Source: Actinomycetota bacterium
Lineage (GTDB): Bacteria; Actinomycetota; Aquicultoria; UBA3085; Oleimmundimicrobiaceae
DNA: 64,000 bases
Direction of reading: 5' to 3'
Assembly (NCBI GenBank): GCA_030017835.1
Contig: JASEGU010000004.1
Span: 6,445 to 70,444, forward strand
Part shown: positions 1,424-38,588 of the stretch, one piece after another
Layout: every line of letters begins with the position of its first letter
How positions within the stretch are numbered: position 1 is the first letter of the stretch
Notes under the pieces: model-generated
The model's input: only the letters and a program-made list of their open reading frames with translations
The model's database searches: none
Told to the model about the DNA's origin: nothing
Made by a program: the position numbers and the translations under genes

Positions 1424-2695
1424 ATGGCTCCAGAAATAAGGTTGGATAAATGGAAGGACCTATACTCTAAGCGGGCTCTGGCCCTAAAGTCCTCGGTAAT
1501 CCGCGACCTCTTCATCGTCGCCTCGCGCCCCGACATAATCTCCTTTGCGGGCGGCATGCCCGATACCCGGAGCCTACCGATGAATCTCATAGCCGATGCG
1601 ACCAGGAGGGTTCTGGAGAGAGAAGGGGCGGCGGCCCTCCAATACGGCTCCTCAGATGGGCATTTGGGTCTTAGGGAGCGCATAGCAAGCCTGATGAAGG
1701 ACGACGGCATGGTCGTCGATGTCGAAGAGATAATAGTGACCGACGGCGGCCAGCAGGCCCTCGATTTTCTGGGAAAGATCCTGATAAACCCGGGCGACGA
1801 AATCATCGTCGAAGGACCAAGCTACGTCGGAGCCATTCAGGCCTTCTCCAGCTATCAAGCAAGATTTTTGTCCGTCCCCCTAGATGACGACGGCATTCAG
1901 ATAGAGCCCCTTGAAAAACTCTTGAAAGACCTGAAGGAGGCGGGCAAAAGACCCAAGTTTTTGTATCTGGTGCCAGCCTTTCACAACCCGGCCGGGGTGA
2001 CCCTCGCACTCGAAAGGCGAAGGAGGATAGTCGAGATGGCCAGGGAGCACTCTCTCTTGGTGATAGAGGATAACCCCTACGACCAGCTTCGCTTCGACGG
2101 AGAGCCGCTTGCCACTTTAAGGTCGATGGATGATTCGATCGTCTACATGAGCACCTTCTCTAAAATATTCTCTCCCGGGGTGCGCCTGGGTTGGATCGCT
2201 GCGCCCAAGCCGATCTTGGAAAAGCTCAACTTTGCCAAGCAGGCAGCAAACCTCTGTTCGAGCTCGTTCTCCCAAAGGGTGGTCGAAGAGTACTTCAACA
2301 CCTGTCCCTGGGAGAAGTACCTCAAGAAACAGACCGACCTCTATAAGGAGAGACGCAACGTCATGCTCTCAGCTTTGGAAGAATTCTTTCCAAGCGAGGC
2401 CAGATGGACCCGCCCGATGGGAGGACTCTTCCTCTGGGTCACATTGCCCGACTACATTAATACTTCGGAGATGTTGGCCGAATCGATCGACCAAGCCAAG
2501 GTGGCCTACGTGCCGGGCGAAGCTTTCTTTACCGACGGCAGCGGCAAGAACTCGATGCGCTTAAACTTCTCCTATCCACACAAGGAGAGCATCAGAGAGG
2601 GGATTGAGCGGCTGGGAGATTTGATAAAATCACAGATGAGACTCTATGAGACCTTCACCAAGAAGCTTAAAATAGATGAGGATAAAAAGCGATGA
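1424..2695 (+). CDS. PLP-dependent aminotransferase, class I/II (AspC/LysN-like)
   Basis: 423 aa with fold-type I aminotransferase architecture (…FAGGMPD…, …YMSTFSKIFSPGVRLGW…). The Lys-containing SKxxxPGxRxG motif is present. Confidence 0.8.
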   Translation: MAPEIRLDKWKDLYSKRALALKSSVIRDLFIVASRPDIISFAGGMPDTRSLPMNLIADATRRVLEREGAAALQYGSSDGHLGLRERIASLMKDDGMVVDVEEIIVTDGGQQALDFLGKILINPGDEIIVEGPSYVGAIQAFSSYQARFLSVPLDDDGIQIEPLEKLLKDLKEAGKRPKFLYLVPAFHNPAGVTLALERRRRIVEMAREHSLLVIEDNPYDQLRFDGEPLATLRSMDDSIVYMSTFSKIFSPGVRLGWIAAPKPILEKLNFAKQAANLCSSSFSQRVVEEYFNTCPWEKYLKKQTDLYKERRNVMLSALEEFFPSEARWTRPMGGLFLWVTLPDYINTSEMLAESIDQAKVAYVPGEAFFTDGSGKNSMRLNFSYPHKESIREGIERLGDLIKSQMRLYETFTKKLKIDEDKKR

Positions 2696-2720
2696 TATGG
2701 ATGAGACATTAGGAGGAGAT

Positions 2721-3668
2721 ATGAGCAAGCCTAAAGTTGCCGTCCTGATGGGCGGACGCTCGCTGGAGAGGGAGGTCTCCCTAAAGAGCGGCCACCGAGT
2801 CTCCGAAGCCCTAAAGTCTAAGGGCTACCCCATAATCCAGATCGATGTAAGCGAGAACCTTGTAGATCTGCTCAAGCAAGAGCGGCCCGAGGTAGTCTAC
2901 ATCGCTCTACATGGCAAGTACGGTGAGGACGGAACGGTTCAGGAGCTCCTCGAGATACTCGACATCCCATATACCGGGCCGGGCGTCTACTCAAGCATCA
3001 TCGGATTCGACAAGGCCATATCGAAGGAGATCTTTCAGATAAATTCCATCCCAACGGCCCCCTTCGTCTCCTTGAGCGAGGGCGCCTTCAAAGAGATGGG
3101 AGCCTCCGCAGCCCTGGCCGAGGTGATAGCGAAGATAGGTCTGCCCTTGATCGTAAAGCCGGCCCGGCAGGGATCGGCCCTTGGGATCAAGTACGTCAAG
3201 GAGCGGGGCGAGCTGGCCGAAGCCCTCCTTGGTGCCTTAAGCTACGACAAGAAGGTGATAATAGAGAAATTCATAAAGGGTAAGGAGCTTGCCATCAGCA
3301 TCCTGGAAGAGGACGGCCAGCCTAAGGCCCTGCCGATAGTCGAGATCGTAACCGAAAAGGATTTCTTCGACTTCGAGGCGATGTATTCGATGGGAGAAAC
3401 CAAATATTTCGTGCCGGCCCGGCTTTCAAAAGACGAGACCAAAGATGTTCAAGAACTGGCTGTAAGGGTCCATCGGACCCTTCTCTGCCGCGACGTCTCG
3501 AGGGTGGATATGATCCTCTCTGAAGACGGCCCGATCGTTCTGGAGCTAAATACCGGCCCCGGCATGACCGAGACGAGCCTCCTTCCGATGGCGGCCGAGG
3601 CGGCGGGGGTAGAATATGGCGACCTAGTCCAGCGCCTGATAGTGATGGCCTTAAAAAGAAGATGTTGA
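2721..3668 (+). CDS. ddl: D-alanine--D-alanine ligase (paralog 1)
   Basis: MSKPKVAVLMGGRSLEREVSLKSG… is an ATP-grasp Ddl. The ATG at 2721 follows AGGAGGAG (2711-2718), and the ORF upstream extension is unlikely. Confidence 0.85.
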   Translation: MSKPKVAVLMGGRSLEREVSLKSGHRVSEALKSKGYPIIQIDVSENLVDLLKQERPEVVYIALHGKYGEDGTVQELLEILDIPYTGPGVYSSIIGFDKAISKEIFQINSIPTAPFVSLSEGAFKEMGASAALAEVIAKIGLPLIVKPARQGSALGIKYVKERGELAEALLGALSYDKKVIIEKFIKGKELAISILEEDGQPKALPIVEIVTEKDFFDFEAMYSMGETKYFVPARLSKDETKDVQELAVRVHRTLLCRDVSRVDMILSEDGPIVLELNTGPGMTETSLLPMAAEAAGVEYGDLVQRLIVMALKRRC

Positions 3669-5330: not shown

Positions 5331-5359
5331 AAAAAGGGAGGGCATTCGCCCTCCCTTTA
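5331..5359. terminator. bidirectional rho-independent terminator between convergent genes
   Basis: AAAAAGGGAGGGCattcGCCCTCCCTTT is a perfect 9-bp GC stem flanked by A and T runs. It lies between the HAD gene (end 5314) and glycerate kinase (end 5555). Confidence 0.7.
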
Positions 5360-5554: not shown

Positions 5555-6718
5555 TCAGCGGTCGAGGTGCTTTAAGGCTATCTCTTCACCAAGCTCCTTA
5601 AGCAATTCGGCCGCCCGCTCGATCGACTCGTCCTTTGAGCCACCCGCTCTCTCAAGAAGAGAATAAGCCGCGGTCGCCCCAGCCTCCAAGATGCTTTCAC
5701 CCGCCCCCTCTTCAACCACTCCGGCTACCACCACGCAAGGGACGCCAAGGCTCCTGGCAAGGCTAAGTACACCAAGGGGCGTTTTTCCGAAGGCCGTCTG
5801 GACGTCCAGCTTTCCCTCTCCGGTTATTACAAGATCCACCAAGGCCATTTTCTCCTTAAGATGAGAGACCGCGATGATGAGGTCGATGCCCGAATGCATC
5901 TTGGCCCCGAGGAAGACCATTAGGCCGGCGCCAAGGCCGCCCGCCGCTCCGGCGCCGGTCTTGTTCGCGACATCGATTCCAAGGTCCCTTAGGATGACAT
6001 CCGCAAAATTTCTAAGCCCCCGATCCAGCATCTCGACGATCTTCGGATCGGCTCCCTTTTGAGGGGAGTAGACGAAGGCTGCGCCGTCCGGACCGTAAAG
6101 GTGGTTCTTCACATCGGAGGCGACGATAAAGTCGACTCCCTTGATCCGTTCGTCGATTTTGGAAGCATCGATCCTTGCAACTTTTTCTAAAAGAGCTCCG
6201 GAGCCGAAATCCTTTATTTCCTCGGCCGCCTCGTCGAAGAATTTTACTCCGAGAGCCTGGGCCATACCCATGCCTCCATCGGTCGTCGCGCTTCCGCCTA
6301 TTCCTATGATAATCTTTGACGGCCGCCTTTTTAAGGCGGCCAAAACGAGTTCCCCCGTACCATAGGTGGTCGTAAATAAGGGATTTCTCTTCTCTTTCGG
6401 GATCAAGGATAGGCCTGAGGCGGCGGCCATCTCTAAAACCGCAACTTCCTCTTTCTTTTGGCCCAATTCCTCATTGATGAGACCAAAGAATGCCAGCGTC
6501 ATCTCGCCAAGAGGTCCCGTGACTAAGGCCTCTATGCGCTCTCCGCCAGCCCCGGCTATTAGGGCGTCGACCGTTCCTTCGCCGCCGTCGGCTAAGGGGG
6601 CGGTGATTATGTGAGTCGCTGGTCGCACCCTTTCCATGCCGGTTTTGAGGGCGGCGGCAACTTCGGAAGCCGAAAGGGAGTCCTTGAATTTGTCGGGAGC
6701 GATGAGGACGGTGGCCAA
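5555..6718 (-). CDS. glxK: glycerate kinase
   Basis: The N-terminus MATVLIAPDKFKDSLSA… is the glycerate kinase family signature (IAPDSFKxSL). Confidence 0.85.
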   Translation of the reverse strand: MATVLIAPDKFKDSLSASEVAAALKTGMERVRPATHIITAPLADGGEGTVDALIAGAGGERIEALVTGPLGEMTLAFFGLINEELGQKKEEVAVLEMAAASGLSLIPKEKRNPLFTTTYGTGELVLAALKRRPSKIIIGIGGSATTDGGMGMAQALGVKFFDEAAEEIKDFGSGALLEKVARIDASKIDERIKGVDFIVASDVKNHLYGPDGAAFVYSPQKGADPKIVEMLDRGLRNFADVILRDLGIDVANKTGAGAAGGLGAGLMVFLGAKMHSGIDLIIAVSHLKEKMALVDLVITGEGKLDVQTAFGKTPLGVLSLARSLGVPCVVVAGVVEEGAGESILEAGATAAYSLLERAGGSKDESIERAAELLKELGEEIALKHLDR

Positions 6719-6751: not shown

Positions 6752-7666
6752 CTATGCCTCTCTTAAGAATGCTTTCTCTTCTGCGGTGTCGAGCATCTTA
6801 GAGACCTTGACGATCTCATAGCCCTCTTCAAACAAAAAATCTATGACCTTGGGCAGCGCCATTATCGTGTTTGTCCGGTTCTTCTGCTTGCACCCGATCA
6901 AAGAGCCGTTATCGTGAAAGAGGATTATCGCGCCATCGCGCACAAAGAGCTTGACCCGCCAGAGAATAGCCTTGGGCTTTACCCCTCGCCAATCGAGCGA
7001 GCTTAAGGTCCAGAGAACTATCCGATAGCCCTCTTTGAGAATCTCTCTTCTGGTCTTAGTCCTGGTAAATCCGCGGGGAGGACGGAAGATGTTGGTCTTG
7101 ATCCCAGTGGCCCGAAATATCGATTCTTCGGCCCGAGCTATATCGCTTAAAATGGCTTTGTCCTTAGAGAGACCCATTTCGATGTGGCTGTGGGTATGAT
7201 TACCTATCTCGTGGCCTTCGGCTACGATGCGTCTGGCTAGCTCGGGATACTTGTCGACGTAGCTGCCGGTCAAAAAAAAGGTCGCCTTGACGCCCTTATC
7301 GCTTAGAATATCCAGAATCTTTGGGGTGTTTTTGGGACTTGGACCGTCGTCGAAGGTTATGGCGACCATTTGGCTTAAGAGTCCTTGGCGAAAGACCCCC
7401 TCTTGACAGCCGATGCCATGATACTCCGAGTAGCTGGCAAAGATGGCCAGGGCCGCATATAGGACGAGGAATAAGAGGATGTAGCTCTGGCTTCCCCTGC
7501 CAATCTTAAGCAGGACGTTTCCATAAGGCAGGCTCCTAAGAAAGATTACCCCCGCTATCGACAAGGTCAGACCATAGGTTAGTTTGGGAAAAAAATACTT
7601 AAAGTACCTCTTCAAACAGCTTTTCTCCTTAAGAAGGATGGGGCTTCGAAGCGGAGCCCCATCCAC
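6752..7666 (-). CDS. polysaccharide deacetylase (NodB homology) with N-terminal TM helices
   Basis: VAITFDDGPSPKNTPKILDILSDKGVKATFFLTGSYV plus HTHSH are the NodB catalytic motifs. Confidence 0.8.
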   Translation of the reverse strand: MDGAPLRSPILLKEKSCLKRYFKYFFPKLTYGLTLSIAGVIFLRSLPYGNVLLKIGRGSQSYILLFLVLYAALAIFASYSEYHGIGCQEGVFRQGLLSQMVAITFDDGPSPKNTPKILDILSDKGVKATFFLTGSYVDKYPELARRIVAEGHEIGNHTHSHIEMGLSKDKAILSDIARAEESIFRATGIKTNIFRPPRGFTRTKTRREILKEGYRIVLWTLSSLDWRGVKPKAILWRVKLFVRDGAIILFHDNGSLIGCKQKNRTNTIMALPKVIDFLFEEGYEIVKVSKMLDTAEEKAFLREA

Positions 7667-7675: not shown

Positions 7676-8779
7676 TTACTCGCCCGGAACGAACCTGTCC
7701 TTTAGCTTCTCCATGACCATGGGCATCGTCGTGTATTCCATCTCTTCCAAGGGAAGACGATGGGGCTCGAAGGGGCCGTGAGCCCTTAAGTAATCGGCCG
7801 CATCCAGGGCCTTCTTCCTGGCATTGTCGTAGCTGGGATCGTCGAACATATCGCGCGGTCCCACGAAGTTACCGCCCGAAATCTGAAAGCCCAAGCAGAC
7901 GACCCTGGGCGGTCCATCGAACCTGGTCGGGTTGGCCTTCTCCACCGATACCGGCATGAGCGGACCATGATGGGAGCCGCGCATCCAGCCAGCCACCGCA
8001 TGGGGGAAAGAGAAGGGCTCGACGACTTCGCCCACGGCCGGCATGCCGCTCTGTGACCTGACGATCATCACCGGATCATCCTTTCCGACGTACCGACCGG
8101 CCATCAGGTTGAGCCGCTGGGTCGAGGTGACGGCCGCTATTTCGTTATCGCCCTTGCGGTAGACATGCTTGATGGCAAATCTGGAAGGGGCCCCGATGAA
8201 GATGAGCATGTTGTATAGCTCTTCGGGACAAGAGAAGGTGACCTTCTTGTGCTCCATCATATCGACGACCTCGAAGTTGAAGCCGTCATGCATATTCGGG
8301 TCTATAACCAGACCGATGGTGTTGAAGGGATCGGCAAACATCTTGTAGAGTGGCAGATTCCAGGCGCCAGGCTCCGTCTTGTCGGCCAAAAATATCAGAA
8401 TCGGCTCGCTCTTTCTCTCTTCAAACTCCATCTCGGCAAAGCCGGGACCCATCCCCTTTAGGTTGCCGGAGAATGCATCGGACAACAGGTCTTGGCCCGC
8501 CCCGTACAGCTTGAGCTTCTTGGCAACCTCGGTTGTCTTCATGAAGGTCTCCCAAGCAAATTTGTGGATCTTCTCGTTCTCGATCCCGTGCTCATGGGTC
8601 ATTATCAGAGCTATGTCATCACCCACGTGACCACAGTGAACATCGATGAGCAGACCGCTTTTCTTGGCCTTTTCGAGTTCTCCGGCCGACTCACCGAGCA
8701 GATCATCATGGACCGAAGAGTGACCGACATAGCCGCCCACGTCGGCCTTGATAACGCTCAGCGTAATCTTGTCTCCCAT
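7676..8779 (-). CDS. fbp: bifunctional fructose-1,6-bisphosphate aldolase/phosphatase (class V, archaeal-type FBPase)
   Basis: MGDKITLSVIKADVGGYVGHS… through …DPVMIVRSQSGMPAVGE…GWMRGSHHGPLMPVS… has motif-level identity to archaeal and deep-branching bacterial FBP A/P enzymes. Confidence 0.85.
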   Translation of the reverse strand: MGDKITLSVIKADVGGYVGHSSVHDDLLGESAGELEKAKKSGLLIDVHCGHVGDDIALIMTHEHGIENEKIHKFAWETFMKTTEVAKKLKLYGAGQDLLSDAFSGNLKGMGPGFAEMEFEERKSEPILIFLADKTEPGAWNLPLYKMFADPFNTIGLVIDPNMHDGFNFEVVDMMEHKKVTFSCPEELYNMLIFIGAPSRFAIKHVYRKGDNEIAAVTSTQRLNLMAGRYVGKDDPVMIVRSQSGMPAVGEVVEPFSFPHAVAGWMRGSHHGPLMPVSVEKANPTRFDGPPRVVCLGFQISGGNFVGPRDMFDDPSYDNARKKALDAADYLRAHGPFEPHRLPLEEMEYTTMPMVMEKLKDRFVPGE

Positions 8780-8938
8780 AAATCCTCCTTTAATTGAATA
8801 TTCAGATATACATTCTATCTCAAAGAAACAAATCGTGCCTTACTTGCCTTGCGCAACAATGGGTCAACTGGGTTATCGAAAAGAACTCCCCTGCGCTTTA
8901 CATAAAAGCCCCTTCTGATATTCTATTTTAATAGCAAT

Positions 8939-11641: not shown

Positions 11642-12078
11642 AGCTAAGATACCTCATATTGACCGTAATGCCTTGGATAGAGCTTAGGGGAGCCATACCT
11701 TTGGCGATCAAAGATGGGGAGTATCTGGCCGTACCCTTCATAATGGCCATAAACATCCTCATCTTCTTCCCGACCTACTATGGCTTGGAGTTGATGAGGC
11801 GCTGGGTCAAGGAGGGCTCTTGGCTAAGCCGGCGGCTCAAAGTGGTCGAAGAAAAATCGGCGCCGCTGGTGAGGAGGTACGGTCTTTTGGGGCTTGCGGT
11901 CTTTGTCATGATTCCGCTTCCCGGAACCGGAGCCTATTCCGGCACGGCGGCTGCCTGGCTTCTTGGCTTTAGGAAGAGGACGGCCTTCTTTGCGGTGGCC
12001 CTCGGGGTGATCCTGGCGGGAATCATCGTCTCGCTAATAAGCCTCTCTGTAAGGAGCGGGTTATTTGGGCTCCTCTAG
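11638..12078 (+). CDS. small multidrug-export-like membrane protein (COG2426 / Sm_multidrug_ex family)
   Basis: 146 aa with 4 TM helices and the motifs IELRGAIP and PLPGTGAYSG. Its start overlaps the ATPase stop (ATGA). Confidence 0.5.
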   Translation: MKLRYLILTVMPWIELRGAIPLAIKDGEYLAVPFIMAINILIFFPTYYGLELMRRWVKEGSWLSRRLKVVEEKSAPLVRRYGLLGLAVFVMIPLPGTGAYSGTAAAWLLGFRKRTAFFAVALGVILAGIIVSLISLSVRSGLFGLL

Positions 12079-13014
12079 AGCAAGTTCGACTATCCTTGAA
12101 ACCAGATCTCCCATGTCCATGCCGGCCGCCTTGGCCGCATCGGGAAAGAGGCTTAAAGGGGTCATGCCCGGACTCGTGTTTATCTCCAGAACGTACGGCG
12201 TGCCGTCCTTTGAGACGATGAAGTCGACCCTGGAAAACCCCCGGCAAAACAGCATCTTGTGGACTCTGGTGGCGAGTTTTTGCGCCGCTTCGTTCGCCGC
12301 CCCAGGAATTCTGGCCGGAATCACATGATGACTCATTCCGGCGGTATACTTCGATTCATAGTCATAGATTTCACCCTCATAGGTGATCTCTAGGGTGGGA
12401 AGGGCAACAAGATCGCGGTTTCCAAGAACGCCGACGGTAATCTCCGTCCCCTCTATATGCTCCTCCACCAATACCTCTTCGTCATAGCGGAAGGCCTCCT
12501 TAAGGGCCGGACCAAGATCGGCCTCCTCCTTGACGATGCTCATCCCGATGGTCGACCCTTCGCAGGCTGGCTTGACGACTAGGGGTAGGTCCAGCTTAGA
12601 GATAATCTCCTTAAAAGCGTCTTTGGCCTCAAAAATAAAATCCGACCGCGTAAGGGGAATGAACTCGGCGGTCGGTACGCCCTCAAATTTGAGCAGTTTT
12701 TTGGTGACGATCTTGTTGAGACCAAGGGCGCTCGCCAGGATCTTGGAGCCGGTGTAGGGTATGCCGAGGATCTCGAGAAGACCCTGGATCGCTCCGTCCT
12801 CCCCCAGGCGGCCATGGAGGGCTATGAAGGCCACATCAGGCCGGGCCTCCTTTAGGCGCTCCGAGATATCTATATCCAGATCTATCTTGATTGCCTGGTA
12901 GCCCCGGCCAGCCAGGGCCTTGTAGGCCTCTTCGCCCGAGATGAGGGATATCTCCCTCTCTTTGGAGCTGCCGCCGCAGATTATCGCCACTCTAAGTCCG
13001 TTCATGTCCTCCAC
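12061..13014 (-). CDS. ddl: D-alanine--D-alanine ligase (paralog 2)
   Basis: LRVAIICGGSSKEREISLISG…EINTSPGMT is an ATP-grasp Ddl. It is a second copy, divergent from the one at 2721. Confidence 0.85.
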   Translation of the reverse strand: MEDMNGLRVAIICGGSSKEREISLISGEEAYKALAGRGYQAIKIDLDIDISERLKEARPDVAFIALHGRLGEDGAIQGLLEILGIPYTGSKILASALGLNKIVTKKLLKFEGVPTAEFIPLTRSDFIFEAKDAFKEIISKLDLPLVVKPACEGSTIGMSIVKEEADLGPALKEAFRYDEEVLVEEHIEGTEITVGVLGNRDLVALPTLEITYEGEIYDYESKYTAGMSHHVIPARIPGAANEAAQKLATRVHKMLFCRGFSRVDFIVSKDGTPYVLEINTSPGMTPLSLFPDAAKAAGMDMGDLVSRIVELALEEPK

Positions 13015-13358: not shown

Positions 13359-15515
13359 TTATCTCTCTTCTTCTACAATAATATATAAGAGAGCGACAAT
13401 TGCAAACATTATGGTTGCCGCGGCAGCGGCCGCTCCGGTGTCGTTGAAGATGAAGGCGGCCAGCGCCCCAGATGAGGTGCCAATAAAGCCCGCGACCAGG
13501 CTGGGGCGCTCCCGCTTAAGCTTATCGAAGAAGCCGACCGGGCGGAAGAAGAGCATCGGGGAGACGAGCAGGGTGGCAAGGAGTATCCTCGTCCAGACCG
13601 TATATTTCATGCCCCGGTAATTCATGGCTATCTTCCGTCTTGTGATTTCCAACAGCTCCTTTACCCCGCCCTCGTAGATCATCATGACGCTCCGCCCCGC
13701 ATGGCTGGTCGCCCCGCCCCGAAATATGTCTATGGCCAAAAAGATGAGAAGGGCTCCGAGGGCGGCTCCGGCGACGTAGAGAAAGTGCCTCCTTTTGAGC
13801 GAGCCCTGAAACAGGACTATCAGAGTGATGGCGAAACCGACCGAGGCGGCTATGGTTCCTCCGACGTTGGCTCCCAGGGCGGGATGTCCTATCGCCACCA
13901 CCACGGCCGCAAACATCAGGCCGGCCAGAAGATGGTGCGCTCTCAATCGAAGCTTCTTTACATCGAGCAAGGATGTTATGCCGATTATGCTCGCCCCGAT
14001 CAGAATGCCCATATATTCGTTTCCGATGCCGTAAAATCTGGCTCCGATGTTGGGACAGTAGCCCAAGATTGAGGTCCTTATGAGGTTCCAGCCGGTCATC
14101 ATGTCAAGGGTCAGGATGACCACGGTCAAGAGGCAGATCAGGACTATCGGCATAAGTTGCGAGCCCTTGAAATAGCGGGCGCACATGACGATGGCGCCCG
14201 CTATGGCTGATACGAGGAGAATCGGCAGAATCATGTGACCGTAGTCGATGGGGGCGAATATTTCGAAGGCCACGGGTATGCTGAGCAGCCAAAGAAAGAT
14301 CACCTGGATGGCCCCCACCAGTCTCTTTGGGATATTTTTGAAGAATGAAACAAGGGCGGCCAGGATGACCATTATCGAAACTAAGGTAACATAGCCTTTG
14401 AGCAGCGGGACTCTGGCTATCGCTTTATTCTCATACCTGGTGCTCATCCGCCCCATGTAAGATGGGTCAACCCTTCTGTCCAAGAACCTTATTGGCCTGC
14501 CCGTCATCTCCTCTCCCTTTTCGGCGCCGAGGATGCTCAAGATGGTCGGGGCGATATCGGTGCTGTCGACTATCCCAGGCCACCTGGTCGTATCCGAGAT
14601 CAAAAGGCCTCCATCGACGCTAGCTCCGATCATAATTGCGGGAGCCAGAAAGTTGCCCCGCTCCATCGCCTCAGGCGGGTTGGAGGGAGCGAGGAGCATT
14701 AGGGTGGTATCATCACCCAAGATGCTCAAAACCTCGCCAAGATAGCGGTCGACCGCCTCCATCTTGAATTTGCGCCTCTTGATGATGGCCTCTTCCGTAT
14801 ATAGATTATTTCTGCTCTCAAGACGAGTCGTATCCCCGAGCTCGACGACCAGAAGGTCGGATGTGGCAAGCAGGTCCTTGGTCTTTGTAAAGAGCGCGGC
14901 GTAGTCGGTTATCGTTCCCGTCTCTTTAGAGATAGTGTTGGTCGCGGCCGAGACGTCGCCAAGGTAAGTCAAGCCCAGCTCGTCCATGGTTATCAATGAG
15001 GCCTCCCTGTGAGGCTCGCCCACGTTATCGCCGTTTCCAATGAGGGCCGCCTTGAGGCCACCCTCCTTTAGGGCTTTGCCCAGAGAGCCCGGCAGGTTGC
15101 TTCTGGGGATCGTCTTCGAGGTGGCTATGATGTTGGCGATCGAAAGGTTGGCTATGCTGCCCAAGGGAGGCTCGATGCCGGTCCTCTGGAGAAAGATGTC
15201 GGACGCAAGGATTCCGCTTGGATGGACCTCGTCCCGGTTGAAAGATTCGCCAGCCGTCCCGCCCGTCTTGGTCTTTGCCCCGACTCCAATGCAGAGATAG
15301 CCGTCATAAGGGTTTGGACCCGCCTGGGTCCTGACGTTCATGAGGCCTGCGGCGCCCTCTTTGGCAATTTTTGATAGGTTCGGCGCCGCGGCCTCGGCAA
15401 GCTCGCTCGCCCCAAGACCGTTGGTGATGACCATGATAACTTTTGGTTTGGCTTCTGCGGCCGCCTTGGGCGCGCCTCCCAGGGCGGCCGCAAGTAAAGA
15501 GATGAGGGCGAACAA
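13359..15515 (-). CDS. large membrane protein with an N-terminal exported alkaline-phosphatase-superfamily-like domain and a C-terminal polytopic (about 10 TM) domain
   Basis: Signal peptide, then a domain ending with the sulfatase/LtaS-like motif DIAPTILSILG, then many TM helices. Family assignment is tentative. Confidence 0.5.
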   Translation of the reverse strand: MFALISLLAAALGGAPKAAAEAKPKVIMVITNGLGASELAEAAAPNLSKIAKEGAAGLMNVRTQAGPNPYDGYLCIGVGAKTKTGGTAGESFNRDEVHPSGILASDIFLQRTGIEPPLGSIANLSIANIIATSKTIPRSNLPGSLGKALKEGGLKAALIGNGDNVGEPHREASLITMDELGLTYLGDVSAATNTISKETGTITDYAALFTKTKDLLATSDLLVVELGDTTRLESRNNLYTEEAIIKRRKFKMEAVDRYLGEVLSILGDDTTLMLLAPSNPPEAMERGNFLAPAIMIGASVDGGLLISDTTRWPGIVDSTDIAPTILSILGAEKGEEMTGRPIRFLDRRVDPSYMGRMSTRYENKAIARVPLLKGYVTLVSIMVILAALVSFFKNIPKRLVGAIQVIFLWLLSIPVAFEIFAPIDYGHMILPILLVSAIAGAIVMCARYFKGSQLMPIVLICLLTVVILTLDMMTGWNLIRTSILGYCPNIGARFYGIGNEYMGILIGASIIGITSLLDVKKLRLRAHHLLAGLMFAAVVVAIGHPALGANVGGTIAASVGFAITLIVLFQGSLKRRHFLYVAGAALGALLIFLAIDIFRGGATSHAGRSVMMIYEGGVKELLEITRRKIAMNYRGMKYTVWTRILLATLLVSPMLFFRPVGFFDKLKRERPSLVAGFIGTSSGALAAFIFNDTGAAAAAATIMFAIVALLYIIVEEER

Positions 15516-15615: not shown

Positions 15616-16527
15616 CTACTCGGCCTCTTCGAGGTCTTGGTCGAAAGAGCTTGAGCCCATGACCGTTCGAAATATCCGCTCCAAGTCGTTTAATGACTTG
15701 AAGTCTATCTCTATCTTGCCCTTTTTTTCGGTCATCTTGATCCTGACCTTGGCAGAGAGCTTTTCGCTAAGGCTCCTCGCCATGGTCCTAAAGGCCTTGG
15801 GTTGAAGGGGCTTGGGGCCAGCGGCCTGCCTGCTGGAGGATAGAGATGACATCTTGACCGTGCTCTCAGTCTGGCGAACGGACATGCCCTCCTCCAGGAT
15901 CCTTCTGGCCAGCTCGATCTGTCTCTCCTCATCGTCTAGGGAAAGAAGGGCTCTGGCGTGGCCGGAAGAGATTTCGTTCTTCTCCAGCATGGTTCTTACT
16001 TCGGCGGGGAGCTGCAATAGCCTGAGCGAATTGGTTACAGCAACCCGGCTCTTTCCCACGATGGCCGAGAGATCGCCCTGGGTCAGACCAAACTTCTCTA
16101 TCAACTCTTTAAAGCCCTCGGCCTCCTCGATGGGACTTAGGTTCTCTCTCTGTATGTTCTCGATGAGGGCGAGTTCGAGCGATTCGATATCGCTGGAGTC
16201 CTTGACGATTGCCGGGATGGCCTCAAGACCAGCATCGGCAGCTGCCCTTAGCCTGCGCTCGCCGGCTATCAGTTCGAATCCTAACCCCTTGGTTCTGACC
16301 ATGACCGGCTGGAGCACGCCAAACTGTTTGACCGATGAGACCAGTTCTTCGAAAGCCTTGGGGTCGAATTTTTTTCGCGGCTGGTTTGGGTTGGGCTCGA
16401 CGGCCTTGATCGGTATCTCTTTTAAGATCGAGGAGTTTAAGATCGAGGAGTCGCCCCTTTCTTGGCCCTCTTGAGCCGCCGGAATCAGTGAATTTAACCC
16501 CTTGCCGAGGCCCCTTTTATTAGCCAC
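15616..16527 (-). CDS. parB: chromosome partitioning protein ParB/Spo0J
   Basis: ParB N-terminal box (GLGKGLNSLIP), HTH, and a position downstream of parA. Confidence 0.9.
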   Translation of the reverse strand: MANKRGLGKGLNSLIPAAQEGQERGDSSILNSSILKEIPIKAVEPNPNQPRKKFDPKAFEELVSSVKQFGVLQPVMVRTKGLGFELIAGERRLRAAADAGLEAIPAIVKDSSDIESLELALIENIQRENLSPIEEAEGFKELIEKFGLTQGDLSAIVGKSRVAVTNSLRLLQLPAEVRTMLEKNEISSGHARALLSLDDEERQIELARRILEEGMSVRQTESTVKMSSLSSSRQAAGPKPLQPKAFRTMARSLSEKLSAKVRIKMTEKKGKIEIDFKSLNDLERIFRTVMGSSSFDQDLEEAE

Positions 16528-17290
16528 GATCCATCACTTCCTTCGCGAACCCCTGGTAGGCAAGGGAGCCCTGACAGACCGGATCGTAGATGGTTATCGG
16601 CTGACCAAAACTTGGGGCCTCGCTCAGCCTGACCGTTCTTGGAATTATGGTCTTGTAGACCTTGTCCTTAAAATATTTGGCGACCTCGTCTACGACCTGC
16701 TGCGAGAGCTTGGTCCTTGAGTCGTGCATGGTCATTAAAACGCCAGCGATCTCGAGGTCGGGGTTGAGGTGCTGGCGTATCAACTTTACGCTCTCCAAGA
16801 GCTTGGAGAGGCCCTCTAGGGCGTAGTATTCGCACTGTATCGGGATTATGATCTGGTCGGCGGCCGTCAGAGCGTTCACGGTGAGAAGGCCCAGCGAAGG
16901 AGGACAGTCGATCAAAATATACTCGAAGTCTTCTCTCAAGGGTTCTATCGCCCTTTTAAGTTTGGTCTCTCTTGAAATGGTCGAGACCAGTTCTATCTCT
17001 GCGCCGGCCAGCTGGATGGTGGCCGGGACGACGAATAAGTTTTCGATCTGGGTCGACTCTATCAAATCCTTTATGGGAGCCTCTTCTATAAGGGCATTAT
17101 AAACGCAGCTGCTCCTGCTCCCCTTGTCCAAACCAAGCCCGCTGGTCGAGTTGCCCTGTGGGTCCAAGTCGACCAAGACGACCCGCCTTCCGGCCTGGGC
17201 CAGACAGGTTCCCAAGTTTATGGTCGTCGTGCTCTTTCCGACCCCGCCCTTCTGGTTTACGATGGCTATCGCTCTGCTTTTTCTGTTCAT
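16520..17290 (-). CDS. parA: chromosome partitioning ATPase ParA/Soj
   Basis: Deviant Walker A KGGVGKSTTTINLG. Confidence 0.9.
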   Translation of the reverse strand: MNRKSRAIAIVNQKGGVGKSTTTINLGTCLAQAGRRVVLVDLDPQGNSTSGLGLDKGSRSSCVYNALIEEAPIKDLIESTQIENLFVVPATIQLAGAEIELVSTISRETKLKRAIEPLREDFEYILIDCPPSLGLLTVNALTAADQIIIPIQCEYYALEGLSKLLESVKLIRQHLNPDLEIAGVLMTMHDSRTKLSQQVVDEVAKYFKDKVYKTIIPRTVRLSEAPSFGQPITIYDPVCQGSLAYQGFAKEVMDRG

Positions 17291-17294
17291 GTCT

Positions 17295-18035
17295 TCACCC
17301 TTTATCGGCCCCGCCTAGGGGCCTCTTCTTTGGAATCCCAGCCCTTCTGGGGTATTGCTTGGGCGTGGGAACCAGTTTTTTTATTATCACGATTGTTCTT
17401 TTGGCTTCAACGAAAGGAACGTCTATCTCTCTTGCGGAGACCATGGCGCCCCCAAGCTCGTTTGCTCCCCTCTCTGCCGCGTCGATCTCGCTCAAGCTCA
17501 AGTTTGCTTTCTGGGCCAAGAGCGAACCGCCGATCTTAAGGATGGGTAAGGCATATTCCGCCAGAACAGAGAGGGGCGCAACCGCTCTTGCTAGAGCCAG
17601 GTCGAACTGCTCTCTGTTGTCCCTATTTATACCATAATCCTCGGCTCGGCAACAGACCGCCTGGATCCCATCAAGGCCCATTCTCTCTATCAAGCCCTGT
17701 AAAAAATCAACCTTCTTCTTGATGGAGTCCAAAAGAATCGTGTTTAAGTGGGGAAAGGCTATCTTTAGGGGCAGGCCCGGAAGGCCTGCCCCGCTTCCGA
17801 TATCTATCACCCTCTCTGTGCAAGAGAAGTCGTGGACGAGCTTAAGGCTCAAGGAGTCAAGGAAGTGCTTGCTGGCGATCTCCTCCTCTTCGGTTATGGC
17901 GGTAAGGGCGGCCCTCTTGTTCCCTGCTACGATCTCGTCCAAAAAGATCTCAAAAAGCTTCATCTTTTCCTCATCAAGCTCGATCTTTAGGGCGCCAGCC
18001 CCCTTGACGAGAAGATCTCGGCTCTTCGCTCTCAT
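17295..18035 (-). CDS. rsmG: 16S rRNA (guanine527-N7)-methyltransferase RsmG/GidB
   Basis: SAM motif DIGSGAGLPGLPLKIAFP, and a position between mnmG and parA. Confidence 0.85.
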   Translation of the reverse strand: MRAKSRDLLVKGAGALKIELDEEKMKLFEIFLDEIVAGNKRAALTAITEEEEIASKHFLDSLSLKLVHDFSCTERVIDIGSGAGLPGLPLKIAFPHLNTILLDSIKKKVDFLQGLIERMGLDGIQAVCCRAEDYGINRDNREQFDLALARAVAPLSVLAEYALPILKIGGSLLAQKANLSLSEIDAAERGANELGGAMVSAREIDVPFVEAKRTIVIIKKLVPTPKQYPRRAGIPKKRPLGGADKG

Positions 18036-19924
18036 TCGTCCGCACTCCGCTTTTTCCGCTCCAAGTGGATCAACAGCGCCAAGGCATCGGCCGGGGTGAC
18101 TCCGGGAACCCGGGTGGCCTGCCCCAGCGAACGGGGGCCGACCCTGGCCAGGCCCTCGCGCGCCCTAAAGGAGAGGCCGTGAAGCTCGTGGAAGTCTGTC
18201 CCCTCGGGGATGAGCCTCTCTTCCATCTTCTTTTGGCGCTTTACCTGTTCCATCTGACGCTTGGTGTAGCCTTCGTATTTAATCTCCGTCTCGACAATTT
18301 TCTTGGCATCTGCCGAGACCTTCTCTCCTTTACGAAAATCTTCGTAAAGTTTAGGAAAGGATGCTTCGAGCTCATCGTGGCAGACTTCGGGTCGGCGCAG
18401 GATCTCGGCCAGGCTGGTCGGCCTCTTTATCCCACTGCTTTTCAGGGCTCTCAATGCCTCGTTGTTGGCCTGGCTTGGAACGAGCCTTGTGCTTTTAAGG
18501 CCGGCTGTCTCGACAAGAATGGCCCTCCTCTTCCTCTCCACCAGCTCCATCCTCTCTTTGGAGATGAGGCCAAGCTCGTGTCCTATCTTCGATAGCCTAA
18601 GGTCTGCGTTGTCTCCTCGCAAGATGAGCCGATGTTCGGCCCTTGAGGTATACATGCGATAGGGCTCGGCATGCTCCTTGGTCACCAGATCGTCTACGAG
18701 AACTCCCATGTAGGCCTGGGAGCGCTCCAGGACCAAGGGGGGCTTCCCTTTGACCTTTAGGGCGGCATTTATTCCGGCCAGAAGACCTAGGGCAGCCGCC
18801 TCTTCATATCCGGTCGTGCCGACTACCTGGCCGGCCATAAAAAGGCCGTCTACCAGCTTGGTCTCCAGATTCGGCTTGAGCTGGCTCGCGATGACGTAGT
18901 CGTATTCGACGGCATATCCCGGTCTAACCATCTTTGCCCTTTCGAGGCCGGGGGTGGATCTGACCACCTCCAGCTGCGCCTTGGCCGGAAGTGCCGTGGT
19001 GAGCCCTTGCAAGTAGACCTCGTTGGTCTCCAGGCCCTCGGGCTCGATAAAGACCGGGTGGCGGGCCTTTTCCGGAAAATTTACAACCTTTCTGTCGATC
19101 GAGGGACAGTTTCTCGGGCCGCGACTCTCTATAATTCCGGTCTTAATCGGAGAGAGATGCATCAGACCAAGAAGTTTCTTGTGCGTCGCCTCGTTGGTAT
19201 AGGTGAGGAAGCAAGGAATGTTGGGCGTCTTCCTGGGCTTGGAGGAGCCGGAGAAGCTCAAGGGGCCCGGGTCGCCGGGCTGAATCTCCATTTTCGAATA
19301 GTCGACGCTCCTTCCATCCAGCCTTGGAGGGGTGGCCGTCTGAAGCCTTCCCAGCTCAAAGCCAAGCTCCTTGAGGCTTCCGGAAAGCGCTCTTGCAGGC
19401 GCTTCGCCCATCCTGCCCCCCGCTATCTCAGTGTCGCCGATGACCAGGCGGCCATTTAGAAATGTGCCCGTCGTCAGGATGACCACGGAAGACCGATGGC
19501 CCCGCCCGTCCTCCAGTTCGACCCCAAGGATTCCCGTCCCTTCCTTTTTGATTCCGCTTACCGTTCCCGGAATTCGAGAGATACCTGCCCGCAAAAGGAG
19601 CTTTGCCATCTTGGCACCATATTTCCGTTTGTCTATCTGAGCTCTCAGTGCCTGGACGGCAGGGCCCTTGCTCCTATTTAACATCTTGATCTGGATCAGC
19701 GTCTCATCGGCGAGCCTAGCCATCCACCCACCCAGAGCATCAATCTCTTTTACCAGATGTCCCTTGCCGATCCCTCCGATAGATGGGTTGCAGGGCATCA
19801 GGGCCACCCTCTCCGCATCCATGGTTATTATGGCAACCCGCAGACCCATCCCAGCTGCAGCCAAAGCTGCCTCAGAGCCAGCGTGACCTGCTCCAATGAC
19901 GATGCAATCGAAGGGTTTTTCCAT
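18032..19924 (-). CDS. mnmG: tRNA uridine 5-carboxymethylaminomethyl modification enzyme MnmG/GidA
   Basis: 630 aa. FAD motif FDCIVIGAGHAGSEAALAAA. Full-length MnmG architecture. Confidence 0.9.
   Translation of the reverse strand: MEKPFDCIVIGAGHAGSEAALAAAGMGLRVAIITMDAERVALMPCNPSIGGIGKGHLVKEIDALGGWMARLADETLIQIKMLNRSKGPAVQALRAQIDKRKYGAKMAKLLLRAGISRIPGTVSGIKKEGTGILGVELEDGRGHRSSVVILTTGTFLNGRLVIGDTEIAGGRMGEAPARALSGSLKELGFELGRLQTATPPRLDGRSVDYSKMEIQPGDPGPLSFSGSSKPRKTPNIPCFLTYTNEATHKKLLGLMHLSPIKTGIIESRGPRNCPSIDRKVVNFPEKARHPVFIEPEGLETNEVYLQGLTTALPAKAQLEVVRSTPGLERAKMVRPGYAVEYDYVIASQLKPNLETKLVDGLFMAGQVVGTTGYEEAAALGLLAGINAALKVKGKPPLVLERSQAYMGVLVDDLVTKEHAEPYRMYTSRAEHRLILRGDNADLRLSKIGHELGLISKERMELVERKRRAILVETAGLKSTRLVPSQANNEALRALKSSGIKRPTSLAEILRRPEVCHDELEASFPKLYEDFRKGEKVSADAKKIVETEIKYEGYTKRQMEQVKRQKKMEERLIPEGTDFHELHGLSFRAREGLARVGPRSLGQATRVPGVTPADALALLIHLERKKRSADE
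18527..18905. repeat. 379-bp direct repeat copy 1 (internal to mnmG)
   Basis: Near-identical to 19931..20309 (378/379 by eye; the single difference is tatacatgcg versus tatgcatgcg). Confidence 0.85.
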
Positions 19925-20941
19925 CTAGCCCCTCTTCCTCTCCACCAGCTCCATCCTCTCTTTGGAGATGAGGCCAAGCTCGTGTCCTATCTTCGATAGC
20001 CTAAGGTCTGCGTTGTCTCCTCGCAAGATGAGCCGATGTTCGGCCCTTGAGGTATGCATGCGATAGGGCTCGGCATGCTCCTTGGTCACCAGATCGTCTA
20101 CGAGAACTCCCATGTAGGCCTGGGAGCGCTCCAGGACCAAGGGGGGCTTCCCTTTGACCTTTAGGGCGGCATTTATTCCGGCCAGAAGACCTAGGGCAGC
20201 CGCCTCTTCATATCCGGTCGTGCCGACTACCTGGCCGGCCATAAAAAGGCCGTCTACCAGCTTGGTCTCCAGATTCGGCTTGAGCTGGCTCGCGATGACG
20301 TAGTCGTATGCCCTGCTTGTTGATGTTGAGATTTTGTCTTTAGGGGGCGCCCCTTGCGACCTTGCGGGGCAAAGCCGAAAACCAAATTCTGTCAGGTCTT
20401 CTTTAAGATTTTTTTTGCGTCTGGACATGGTAAGAAAGGTGAAGCCGAGAGAGGCTTTTGGGGCTTTATGGCTTGGAGGGAGCCCCCCCGTCGCAAGGAG
20501 GACGGTCTTGGCGCCAATGTTTCCCCCGAACATGGTTTTGACTCCAGCGGCTCTTCCCTCCTTAACGATCAGCCCATCGACCAGATCCTGCCAAAAGGAG
20601 ATATTGGAAACCTCTTCTAGCGCCGTCTTTGTGTCGACTAAATGCTCTCGTTTCAAGGAGCGAGCCTCCCTGGCAACCTCATCTTGGCCGTCCCCGCCTT
20701 TAAAAGGAAAGGATCCGCTGACAAGCTCGATCTCTCGAAGCAAGGCCCCCCTTGCGGCCTCGCTAAAAGAGGGAGGATCTTCTCGGCGGATATTGTTGTC
20801 TAGCGAGAAAGAGACCATCAAAACCCTCATGCCCATGCGGGCTGCTGCCCAAGCTGCGCGGGCCCCACACGGGCTTGCCCCAACCACTATCAAATCATAT
20901 CTTTCTATCTTTTGCTCCTTTGATTCAACGCTATTTGCCAA
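19925..20941 (-). CDS. chimeric/degenerate MnmG-like FAD protein (possible pseudogene)
   Basis: The N-terminal ~210 aa are a highly diverged GidA-like FAD domain ([23 protein letters not shown]…[10 protein letters not shown]). The C-terminal 128 aa are identical to MnmG residues encoded by the 379-bp repeat. The ORF stop abuts the mnmG start. Confidence 0.5.
19931..20309. repeat. 379-bp direct repeat copy 2 (forms the 3' part of the chimeric ORF)
   Basis: Same as 18527..18905. Flanks diverge immediately outside the repeat. Confidence 0.85.
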
Positions 20942-20979
20942 AAGTTCTCGTCATGAGAACTTTTGGCAAATAGCGCTCT

Positions 20980-22362
20980 TCACTTTCCGATGCAGAACTT
21001 TGAGAATATCCTGTCCAAGAGCTCATGGTCGGCGCCCACACCCATTATCCCCTCCAGGCTGTCTATAGCCTCTTTGATGAAGAGGGCGACGCACTCCTCG
21101 GGCTCCTTCGTCCGCAGGCCACTCTCGGCCCGGTCGAGGCTGGCCCTGGCCTCATTCAGCGCCTTGTAGTGCCTTGCATTCGTTATCACGATCTCATCCT
21201 CTGCCATCTCGGATCCCAAGACGGCCCCGCCGATGAGCTCTTTTAGCTGTTCGAGCCCTTGGCCGAATTTTGCAGAGACCGAGATGCTCCCTTTGGCTGA
21301 AAAAATCCTCTCTGCCTGGGCAACCGCCGTCTCCAGCGCCGCGTCGGATTTATTCAAAACAACAATTGTCTTGTCTGGATCAAGCCGAGAGAAAATCCCG
21401 CAATCCTCCTCGCAGATCTCTTCGCTCGAGTCGAGAACAAAGAGGGTCAATTCCGACTCCGCCACAAGATCCAGGCTCTTGGCTATGCCCTTCTCTTCCG
21501 CTTCGTTCTCGGGTCTCCTGATGCCCGCCGTGTCGTTGATGACGACGGGAAGGCCGCCTATTTCCATCCCCTCTTCAATCACATCCCTGGTCGTTCCCGG
21601 AAAATCGGTCACTATGCATCTGTCTTGGCCCGTAAGGGCATTGAGCAGACTCGACTTCCCGACATTAGTCCGTCCTATTAAGGATATGACTGCCCCCTCC
21701 CGCAAGATGCGCCCTTTTCCCCAGGTGGCAAGGAGCTCGTCTATCCTTTCCAAAAGGTCTTTTGTAAGCCCTGCTCCCTCTTCGTGAAGCAAGGGGGGGA
21801 TGTCCTCCTCGGAAAAATCAATGTTGCACTCCAGTGCAACCAGGAGGTCCCATGCGCCGCACAGAACCCCTTTAATCCTTGAGGAGAGCGCGCCCTTGAG
21901 CTGCCTGTGCGAGGCGGCTAGGCTTCGTGCCGTTTTGGCGTTGATGGTGTCGATGACGGCTTCGGCTTGGGCCAGATCTATGCGGCCATTCAAAAAAGCC
22001 CTTTTGGTAAATTCTCCTGGTTCAGCCGGTCGCGCTCCGGCCTCAACCAGGGCGTGAAAGGTCTCCCGCAAAGGGATTCTGCCGCCATGACAGTTGATTT
22101 CGATGGTGTCTTCTCTGGTGTAGGTGGCAGGTCCCTTCATCGCCGAAACCAGAACCTCATCTATGGTGTCGGCCCGGCCCGGATGAGCAATATAGCCGTG
22201 AACGATCCTGTGGGTTGCCTCTCCGAGGTCCGTGCCCCTGGGGGAGCGAAATAGCTTTTCGGCTATCTCGAAAGCATCTGTGCCGCTCATCCTGACGATG
22301 CCTATTCCCGAGCTGCCGGGGGGGGTGGAGATGGCGACGATGGTGTCCTTTTCCTCTTTCAT
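20980..22362 (-). CDS. mnmE: tRNA modification GTPase MnmE/TrmE
   Basis: N-terminal TrmE domain, G-domain (GRTNVGKSSLLN) and the C-terminal CIGK motif. Confidence 0.9.
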   Translation of the reverse strand: MKEEKDTIVAISTPPGSSGIGIVRMSGTDAFEIAEKLFRSPRGTDLGEATHRIVHGYIAHPGRADTIDEVLVSAMKGPATYTREDTIEINCHGGRIPLRETFHALVEAGARPAEPGEFTKRAFLNGRIDLAQAEAVIDTINAKTARSLAASHRQLKGALSSRIKGVLCGAWDLLVALECNIDFSEEDIPPLLHEEGAGLTKDLLERIDELLATWGKGRILREGAVISLIGRTNVGKSSLLNALTGQDRCIVTDFPGTTRDVIEEGMEIGGLPVVINDTAGIRRPENEAEEKGIAKSLDLVAESELTLFVLDSSEEICEEDCGIFSRLDPDKTIVVLNKSDAALETAVAQAERIFSAKGSISVSAKFGQGLEQLKELIGGAVLGSEMAEDEIVITNARHYKALNEARASLDRAESGLRTKEPEECVALFIKEAIDSLEGIMGVGADHELLDRIFSKFCIGK

Positions 22363-22458
22363 ATCGCCTCAGAATTACTGGGGTATTTCCAGCTAACCAC
22401 CCTCGGGCAACTAGCTGTTTCACGTGAAACATGGATCTCTGTTCGAATATGCGATCCC

Positions 22459-22896
22459 TCAGTCCGGGCGAATTATAACCCTTCTTTCGGGATCAACGCC
22501 ATCGCTTTCCGTCTTAACTCTAGGATCGTCGTGCAGGCTCTCGTGGATTATCTTGCGCTCAAAAGCGCTCATGGGCCTGAGCGAAACGGGCCGCGCTTCG
22601 CGGACTGCCTTTTCGGCCATCCTTTCGGCCAAGCTGGCTAGCGAGGTCTCCAGGCGAGCCCGGTACTCCTCTATGTCCAAGGATATGAAGCGCTTATTCT
22701 CCTCGTCTTTGTTCTCAACGATTGAAAGTATGAGCTGAAGGGCCTGAAGGGTCGAGCCCCGTCTGCCGATTATAATTCCCAGGTCGTCTCCGCTAATGCT
22801 GTACTTTAGGACGCCCTCCGTTTCTTCGCAGTCAACCTCGGCCTCCAGCCCAAAGGCGTCCAGTACTTTTTGAAGAAGATTCATTCCTTTTTCCAA
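22459..22896 (-). CDS. khpB: Jag/KhpB RNA-binding protein (KH + R3H domains)
   Basis: R3H motif and KH fold, positioned downstream of yidC as in the spoIIIJ-jag pair. Confidence 0.8.
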   Translation of the reverse strand: MEKGMNLLQKVLDAFGLEAEVDCEETEGVLKYSISGDDLGIIIGRRGSTLQALQLILSIVENKDEENKRFISLDIEEYRARLETSLASLAERMAEKAVREARPVSLRPMSAFERKIIHESLHDDPRVKTESDGVDPERRVIIRPD

Positions 22897-22985
22897 CGAT
22901 TATTCCTCCGTGGAAGACCGATTGTTTCCGTCTGGTTGGCCGCTAAGGCGGGTTTCTCTCGCGACTCTTACAAGCCCCGCCGGGG

Positions 22986-23651
22986 CTAGTTCATCGCCCT
23001 GGCAATGGCCTGATGCTGAGCGACGCTCAACATATTATATACGACCCAGTAGATGAGGACGCCGGCCGGAAAGCTCAAACAGATGACTATCATAAATGCC
23101 ATCATCGGCAGCATCATCTTGTCTTGTTGCGGGTCCGTCGAAATAGCTTTCTGCATACCGTATTGGCTGATTATTACCAACAAGAAGAGTACGACGAACG
23201 GCCCTATTGCTGTGGCTTTGCCGCTCGAAAGTGCCGTCTTGAAGCTAGTTGTCAAGCTTGGAATGCCGAGGAAGCTCGCCTTTTCAAGTGTTTCGGTCAA
23301 GGGCCCGCCTGAGGAGAGGAGCCTAAAGAGCGCGAACAATATCGGAAGCTGGAGGAGAAGCGGAAGACATCCGCCAAAGGGGTTTACCTTGTTCTCCTTG
23401 TAGAATTTCATCAGCTCTTGGCCCTGCTTCTCCTTGTCGTTTTTGTGCTTCTCTTGGATCTTTTTAACCTCGGGTTGCCACTTCTTCATCCCCTCAGTGG
23501 CCCGGACTTGCTTGACCACCAGGGGGGTCATCAATAATTTTACCAAAACGGTCAGCGCAACAATTGACCAACCCCAATTATTAATGTAGCCATTGAAAAG
23601 CTTTAAAAAGAAGAGCAAAAGATCTATTATTGGCGTTAAAATTTGAGACAC
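22986..23651 (-). CDS. yidC: membrane protein insertase YidC/Oxa1 (short form)
   Basis: 221 aa with 5 TM helices and conserved YidC core motifs. Position rnpA-yidD-yidC. Confidence 0.85.
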   Translation of the reverse strand: MSQILTPIIDLLLFFLKLFNGYINNWGWSIVALTVLVKLLMTPLVVKQVRATEGMKKWQPEVKKIQEKHKNDKEKQGQELMKFYKENKVNPFGGCLPLLLQLPILFALFRLLSSGGPLTETLEKASFLGIPSLTTSFKTALSSGKATAIGPFVVLFLLVIISQYGMQKAISTDPQQDKMMLPMMAFMIVICLSFPAGVLIYWVVYNMLSVAQHQAIARAMN

Positions 23652-23667
23652 TTCTCACCTTCCTTGT

Positions 23668-23877
23668 CTATTTTAAGGGATCATGGCCCCCATCAGAGAA
23701 CGGATGGCACCTTAAGAGCCTCTTCGTTGCCAAGGCCGCTCCTCTTGCCGGGCCGTATTTATCGACCGCCTCGATGGCATACTGGGAACAGGTTGGAATG
23801 AATCGACATCTTGGGGGGAGCACTGAGGAAACCGTTCTTTGATAAGCTCTTATTATAGCAATAATAATTTTTTTCAT
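23668..23877 (-). CDS. yidD: membrane protein insertion efficiency factor YidD
   Basis: 69 aa with the YidD signature …[27 protein letters not shown]…. Confidence 0.9.
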
Positions 23878-24221: not shown

Positions 24222-24233
24222 GCCTGGCCCCTG

Positions 24234-29912: not shown

Positions 29913-31850
<1,938 letters not shown>

Positions 31851-36332: not shown

Positions 36333-36409
<77 letters not shown>

Positions 36410-36510
36410 TTTGAGAGAAGAGGCTATAACGCAAAAGGCGCGCAGAGCATATTTGGCGCCTTTGTTAATGGAGTCTCTTTGGGCCTTCTCTTAAGGCCGA
36501 TTGGCGAGTT

Positions 36511-38588
<2,078 letters not shown>

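Follow-up and report, generated by a model that had tools for sequence, protein, structure and literature searches.

A probable bifunctional FBP aldolase/phosphatase gene of bacterial lineage in the origin region of an Actinomycetota MAG

The open reading frame at 7676-8779 of the window (the whole 64-kb stretch of Actinomycetota MAG DNA that was analysed) is, with very high probability, an ordinary bacterial gene for a bifunctional fructose-1,6-bisphosphate (FBP) aldolase/phosphatase. The family scores lie far beyond chance and the observation is confirmed as real. The gene and its ribosome-binding site are placed as follows.

7676-8779, minus strand: fbp, the FBP aldolase/phosphatase open reading frame, 367 aa, ATG start
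8784-8788, minus strand: Shine-Dalgarno sequence GGAGG, 4 nt 5' of the fbp ATG (upstream sequence …AAAGGAGGATTT-ATG)

In the Pfam profile search the protein matched PF01950 (FBPase_3) with an E value of 2.4e-187 and 622.8 bits (cut-off 25); its residues 4-363 cover profile positions 1-360 of 361. The NCBIfam equivalog model NF041126, named FBP aldolase/phosphatase, was passed with 601.9 bits against a cut-off of 520 over its full length (positions 1-356 of 356). An identical protein from an Actinomycetota MAG is present in GenBank (MDI6799421.1) and has been named FBP aldolase/phosphatase by NCBI. When all PDB chains were searched, the only matches were two archaeal FBP aldolase/phosphatases, namely ST0318 of Sulfolobus (Sulfurisphaera) tokodaii (3r1m/1umg), aligned in a single ungapped stretch of 360 residues with an E value of about 1e-153, and the Thermoproteus neutrophilus enzyme (3t2b-3t2g), with an E value of 2e-142. 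Identity with 3r1m amounts to 220 of 360 residues (61%), and since this identity to solved structures is ungapped, the prediction of a fold like that of 1umg/3r1m can be considered safe. The reading frame is intact, with no internal stops, no gaps relative to the crystal-structure sequence and a strong ribosome-binding site. The original prediction had assigned the protein to the class V FBP aldolase/phosphatases from its motifs and had proposed PF01950 as the profile to search with; this assignment is borne out, with FBPase_3 as the best profile match from end to end, NF041126 passed, and the residues essential for both activities retained.

Residues at the catalytic positions agree with those of the archaeal enzyme throughout the set that was checked. 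Y230 of the window protein is identical to the S. tokodaii residue at the aligned position, as are D13, H20, D54, D55, D97, K134, D234 and D235, and we take these Asp, His and Lys positions to be the Mg2+/phosphate-binding set of the crystal structures. The Schiff-base lysine is conserved as K233, within the motif RYVGKDDPV and aligned with K232 of 3r1m, and the phosphatase tyrosine is conserved as Y349, within EEMEYTTMP and aligned with Y348. According to PMC5080403, which cites Say & Fuchs (2010), the aldolase activity depends on Lys232 and the phosphatase activity on Tyr348, each being essential.

As homology to the archaeal enzymes of known structure suggests, DHAP would form a Schiff base with Lys233 (Lys232 of the reference) and would then condense with glyceraldehyde-3-phosphate by aldol addition, giving enzyme-bound FBP. 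The mobile loops would rearrange so that the same active site turns to phosphatase chemistry, and Mg2+-dependent hydrolysis, for which Tyr349 (Tyr348) would be needed, would remove the phosphate at C1, leaving fructose-6-phosphate. The two-step reaction as a whole would be effectively irreversible, and the upper Embden-Meyerhof pathway, as far as it runs through this enzyme, would therefore be gluconeogenic only. Judged from its sequence, the window protein is thus expected to convert DHAP and glyceraldehyde-3-phosphate to fructose-6-phosphate and inorganic phosphate in one direction, with no net cleavage of FBP.

Such a role is in keeping with what has been reported for the family. A unidirectional gluconeogenic step is established family knowledge as far as it is presented in the passages citing Say & Fuchs 2010 (PMC12525153; PMC5080403), and the bifunctionality has been explained as a way of trapping heat-labile triose phosphates as stable fructose-6-phosphate, which makes gluconeogenesis unidirectional (PMC12525153). 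Among the bacterial enzymes, Moth_2266 of Moorella thermoacetica has been characterised as unidirectional (PMC5080403). Within the 64 kb, no class I-III FBPase, class I or II FBP aldolase or phosphofructokinase was found by Pfam among the approximately 50 open reading frames of the window. The gene can be regarded as a modest metabolic marker, in that the MAG is probably gluconeogenic in its upper Embden-Meyerhof pathway, as anaerobic autotrophs and syntrophs typically are. Public databases and reviews already cover the enzyme family and its mechanism, its occurrence in bacteria (Actinomycetota among them) and this exact protein sequence, and beyond a correct annotation the finding has little value.

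The window protein shares the fold family, 61% identity over 360 residues and all checked catalytic positions with S. tokodaii ST0318, which differs in being longer (385 aa), with a C-terminal tail past the aligned region, and in coming from a hyperthermophilic archaeon; the window protein (367 aa) ends only 4 residues past that region, like most bacterial homologues, whose lengths among the matches listed are 362-393 aa and mostly 364-376. The T. neutrophilus enzyme belongs to the same family and has two motifs in common with the window protein, KADVGG at the N terminus and RYVGKDDPV. It is, however, 407 aa long and carries two short insertions (approximately 11 residues together) at residues 277-289 of the window protein, which have no counterpart in either the window protein or the S. 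tokodaii enzyme. Bacterial FBP aldolase/phosphatases from Bacillota, Chloroflexota (Dehalococcoidia) and MAGs of Ca. Geothermincolia and Aquicultoria are 69-93% identical, of the same length class and identically annotated, and the sequence comparison detected no difference of functional significance between them and the window protein.

The family is abundant yet highly conserved. A word-indexed protein search returned at least 8000 clusters at E<=1e-20, the best 120 of which are 70-100% identical to the query; those of them that are named come from Actinomycetota, Ca. Aquicultorales, Ca. Geothermincolia, Bacillota/Clostridia, Thermodesulfovibrionales, TA06 and other groups. An exhaustive phmmer search of 1.84 billion 50%-identity representatives gave 1101 matches at E<=1e-3, 203 of them at E<=1e-30. 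When a single genome of each GTDB species was scanned with only six query-specific peptide patterns, 504 loci were confirmed, so that at least 504 bacterial species-representative genomes carry a relative. The best 80 of these 504 loci belong to Actinomycetota, to Dehalococcoidia and other Chloroflexota and to Bacillota, along with single MAGs of TA06, Brocadiia and a 'delta proteobacterium'.

A phylogeny had been proposed for this protein. A neighbour-joining tree was built from 83 sequences over 359 columns, with Kimura distances and 100 bootstraps, and rooted on two archaeal sequences; with the 80 nearest bacterial matches and the two archaeal outgroups as its sample, it does not reach back to how the bacterial clade first arose. 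The window protein is sister to its homologue in MAG GCA_037441605.1 (locus L001; 93% identical) with a bootstrap of 100, and the pair falls within a clade of 32 members (bootstrap 94), all from Actinomycetota save one 'uncultured bacterium' record. The sequences of Bacillota and of Chloroflexota group separately, with the two archaeal ones outside. According to NCBI taxonomy, the relatives Ca. Anoxymicrobiaceae and Ca. Subteraquimicrobium belong to Ca. Geothermincolia and Ca. Aquicultoria, which have been described as basal branches of Actinobacteria (PMC10746217). The placement agrees with a host in the basal actinobacterial radiation around these two groups, and the suggestion in the original prediction that the gene hints at the phylogenetic position of the organism is upheld by these nearest named relatives.

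Two other parts of that prediction need qualification. The term 'archaeal-type' fits only in part and goes too far for a protein that nests among Actinomycetota. The restriction to 'a limited set of deep-branching or thermophilic bacteria' roughly fits the phylogeny, while the reference to thermophily is outdated; the enzyme is not a marker of thermophily, because many close relatives among the best 80 are, according to their record titles, MAGs from groundwater, fens, marine sites and deep mines. As for the host itself, the IVYWREL fraction of 21 window proteins (approximately 10,000 residues) corresponds to about 53 C by Zeldovich's formula, which is meant for whole proteomes, and gives only a weak hint of thermophily.

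Had the gene been acquired recently from archaea by horizontal transfer, it would be mute on the phylogenetic position of its host. The enzyme is typically archaeal, with restricted transfers into bacteria (PMC12525153), and identities differ little from one bacterial phylum to the next (70-80%), both of which would suit such a transfer. Set against this, about 80 bacterial homologues are 69-93% identical to the window protein and the two archaeal references less so (61% for S. tokodaii), the protein is nested in the Actinomycetota clade (bootstrap 94), the GC content around fbp (0.53-0.54) equals the window average, and the neighbourhood is conserved in several actinobacterial MAGs. Given the monophyletic Actinomycetota clade and the at least 504 bacterial genomes with relatives, nothing suggests a recent archaeal origin, which identity, the tree, GC content and synteny led us to reject and which we regard as very improbable. 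The gene instead appears to have been inherited within Actinomycetota, which a 2025 review counts among the phyla of bacteria where the bifunctional enzyme is fixed (PMC12525153).

It is likewise very unlikely, if slightly less so, that the protein is a monofunctional class V fructose-1,6-bisphosphatase for which a separate aldolase makes FBP. The Pfam name FBPase_3 and the names of several matches still read 'fructose 1,6-bisphosphatase', as the family was first annotated, and a classical aldolase might sit in the genome beyond the 64-kb window; but the Schiff-base K233 and the neighbouring Y230 are kept in the YVGKDD motif, the equivalog model that was passed is the one for the bifunctional enzyme, and neither a class I nor a class II aldolase was found among the approximately 50 window open reading frames scanned. 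Moreover, bifunctionality is reported for the characterised members of the family, one of them bacterial (PMC5080403; PMC12525153). That the reading frame is an inactive relic or an artefact of MAG assembly is scarcely credible. The recF gene at 28356-29468 is broken into two open reading frames, so this assembly or genome has at least one disrupted gene, but fbp is of full length relative to the profile (1-360 of 361), retains every catalytic position checked, has a strong ribosome-binding site and is matched in an independent MAG (L001) by an orthologue of 93% identity that has the same neighbours.

The gene probably heads a small lineage-specific operon together with genes for a polysaccharide deacetylase and a glycerate kinase. 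The elements around it are these.

8780-8938, 159 bp: intergenic region between fbp (minus strand) and the divergent P-type ATPase gene (plus strand), presumed promoter region
6752-7666, minus strand: polysaccharide deacetylase gene (PF01522, 126.9 bits), beginning 9 nt 3' of the fbp stop
5555-6718, minus strand: glycerate kinase gene (PF02595, 441 bits), 33 nt past the deacetylase gene, third gene of the putative operon
5333-5358, minus strand: terminator-like hairpin with a T-rich tail, 11 pairs of which 7 are G-C, a consensus match only

The deacetylase scores beneath every NCBIfam equivalog cut-off (PdaB, PgdA and NodB). The glycerate kinase scores 430 bits with the subfamily model TIGR00045 against a cut-off of 168, and falls beneath the equivalog cut-offs of both the 2-kinase and the 3-kinase. 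The P-type cation ATPase gene, divergent and upstream of fbp, is nearest to the Ca2+ type IIA models and lies beneath their cut-offs. By tblastn, among the best 80 loci, fbp and the deacetylase gene are adjacent in eight actinobacterial loci, in three of which (L001, L008 and L025) the glycerate kinase gene follows them; the P-type ATPase gene is present in seven loci. The order fbp-deacetylase-glycerate kinase is accordingly seen in a subset of actinobacterial loci only. From the spacing of 9 and 33 nt together with this partial synteny, fbp would be co-transcribed with the two downstream genes.

The promoter of fbp presumably lies in the intergenic region at 8780-8938. A simple scan for sigma-70-like sites gave only one here, on the plus strand (8897-8924) and belonging to the ATPase gene; fbp had none. 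The hairpin at 5333-5358 is a candidate terminator of the fbp-deacetylase-glycerate kinase unit and perhaps of a convergent HAD hydrolase gene too; terminator-like sites in the scanned region were not enriched over shuffled sequence (7 found against 4.7 expected).

A metabolic link between the genes can be suggested, as a glycerate kinase, yielding 2- or 3-phosphoglycerate, would be a biochemically sensible partner for gluconeogenesis. A wider proposal, namely that the enzyme heads a conserved operon and provides the sole FBP aldolase/phosphatase activity of the cell, making this basal actinobacterium strictly gluconeogenic in the upper Embden-Meyerhof pathway, is tentative and on balance rather unlikely. 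If it were true, salvaged glycerate could pass by way of 2- or 3-phosphoglycerate to fructose-6-phosphate for cell-wall precursors, and strict gluconeogenesis would fit an autotrophic lifestyle, or one based on acetate or C2-C3 compounds, close to the root of Actinomycetota.

The window is a textbook example of an origin region in bacteria, with the following genes.

15616-24368, minus strand: parB, parA, rsmG, mnmG, mnmE, yidC, yidD, rnpA and rpmH
25653-27002, plus strand: dnaA
27216-28319, plus strand: dnaN
28356-29468, plus strand: recF, split into open reading frames 28356-28811 (RecF model positions 4-140) and 28863-29468 (positions 175-339 of 339)
29946-31850, plus strand: gyrB
31862-34327, plus strand: gyrA

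Genes change orientation near 24-27 kb, where the cumulative GC skew also turns (its minimum is at approximately 24.4 kb), and the spacer between dnaA and dnaN is very AT-rich (GC 0.32). Sites matching the E. coli DnaA-box consensus TTATCCACA with at most one mismatch were not enriched in the window (6 found against 7.2 expected), and looser DnaA-box-like 9-mers are densest in the kilobase containing the dnaA-dnaN spacer, with 10 there and 2.1 per kb on average. The origin is called from the genes present, the strand switch, the skew and the AT-rich spacer, and not from DnaA boxes. As fbp lies approximately 17 kb from dnaA, with dnaN, gyrB, gyrA, parAB, mnmG and rpmH also present, its description as 'oriC-proximal' is fair; no functional significance of this position is apparent. 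The split recF is either a pseudogene or the result of an assembly or sequencing error in the MAG.

Several other genes of the origin region are worth recording. A 294-aa protein with a HATPase_c domain and a C-terminal HVO_A0261-like winged-helix region is encoded at 24764-25648 (plus strand), directly 5' of dnaA and inside the rpmH-dnaA gap, a frequent site of oriC. At 19925-20941 (minus strand) a gene encodes a shortened MnmG/GidA-like paralogue of 338 aa that scores 244 bits with the MnmG model against a cut-off of 525; the stop codon of this gene directly adjoins the start codon of the full-length mnmG (18032-19924). Directly 3' of gyrA is a gene for an RtcB RNA ligase (34851-36230, plus strand, 570 bits), followed at 36333-36586 (plus strand) by a pair of tRNA genes, tRNA-Ile(GAT) and tRNA-Ala(TGC). 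The usual place of this pair is in the spacers of rRNA operons; here it stands alone, and rRNA was not found in the 64-kb window. A block of fhaA, a PP2C phosphatase gene, rodA, pbpA and a Ser/Thr kinase gene at 36.5-45 kb is presumably the conserved actinobacterial cluster adjoining oriC.

Two paralogues of the D-Ala-D-Ala ligase family were also observed, one at 2676-3668 (plus strand), overlapping the end of a class I/II aminotransferase gene (1424-2695, plus strand), and the other at 12061-13014 (minus strand), which in relatives is found near fbp and the P-type ATPase gene. Between ddl and parB lies an open reading frame of 718 aa (13359-15515, minus strand) for which neither Pfam nor NCBIfam gave a match at E<=1e-5. 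Further along, genes resembling those for the nickel-pincer cofactor (Lar) occupy 46391-49153 on the minus strand.

46391-47578, minus strand: LarC-like Ni-insertion protein
47584-48408, minus strand: AIR-carboxylase/LarB-like protein
48326-49153, minus strand: overlapping open reading frame with a weak NAD-synthase/PP-loop match, which could be LarE

The most unusual thing in the window is a rare and divergent DPOR-like (BchL/N/B-like) cluster at 60979-64000, which runs to the window end.

60979-61629: NapH-like ferredoxin (Fer4) gene
61651-62469: L-like (NifH-family) gene
62466-63734: N-like (BchN-like) gene
from approximately 63731: B-like (BchB-like) open reading frame, running past the window end (64000)

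The L-like protein passed the equivalog model for the DPOR subunit BchL with 381 bits against a cut-off of 345, compared with only 213 bits for the nifH model, and among solved structures it scored 285 bits with ChlL/BchL and approximately 160 bits with NifH. The N-like protein reached 237 bits with the BchN model, beneath the cut-off of 420, and keeps three cysteines aligned with the cluster cysteines of ChlN; NCBI names it only 'nitrogenase component 1'. The B-like protein is far beneath the model cut-offs. Its counterpart in a relative MAG (locus L081, 2073-6469) is 399 aa long, lacks approximately 110 C-terminal residues of BchB and retains the aspartate aligned with the 'LGDDY' motif of ChlB. 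In that locus the cluster is preceded by a gene for a PerR/Fur-like regulator, and no other bch genes were found within 15 kb around it. A search of 5.8 billion proteins gave a single relative of the N-like protein, 74% identical and from the same MAG as L001, the next matches being BchN of phototrophs at no more than 31% identity. The host MAG is presumably a non-phototrophic basal member of Actinomycetota, and the stand-alone cluster may represent a new branch of DPOR-like reductases, possibly with a new substrate.
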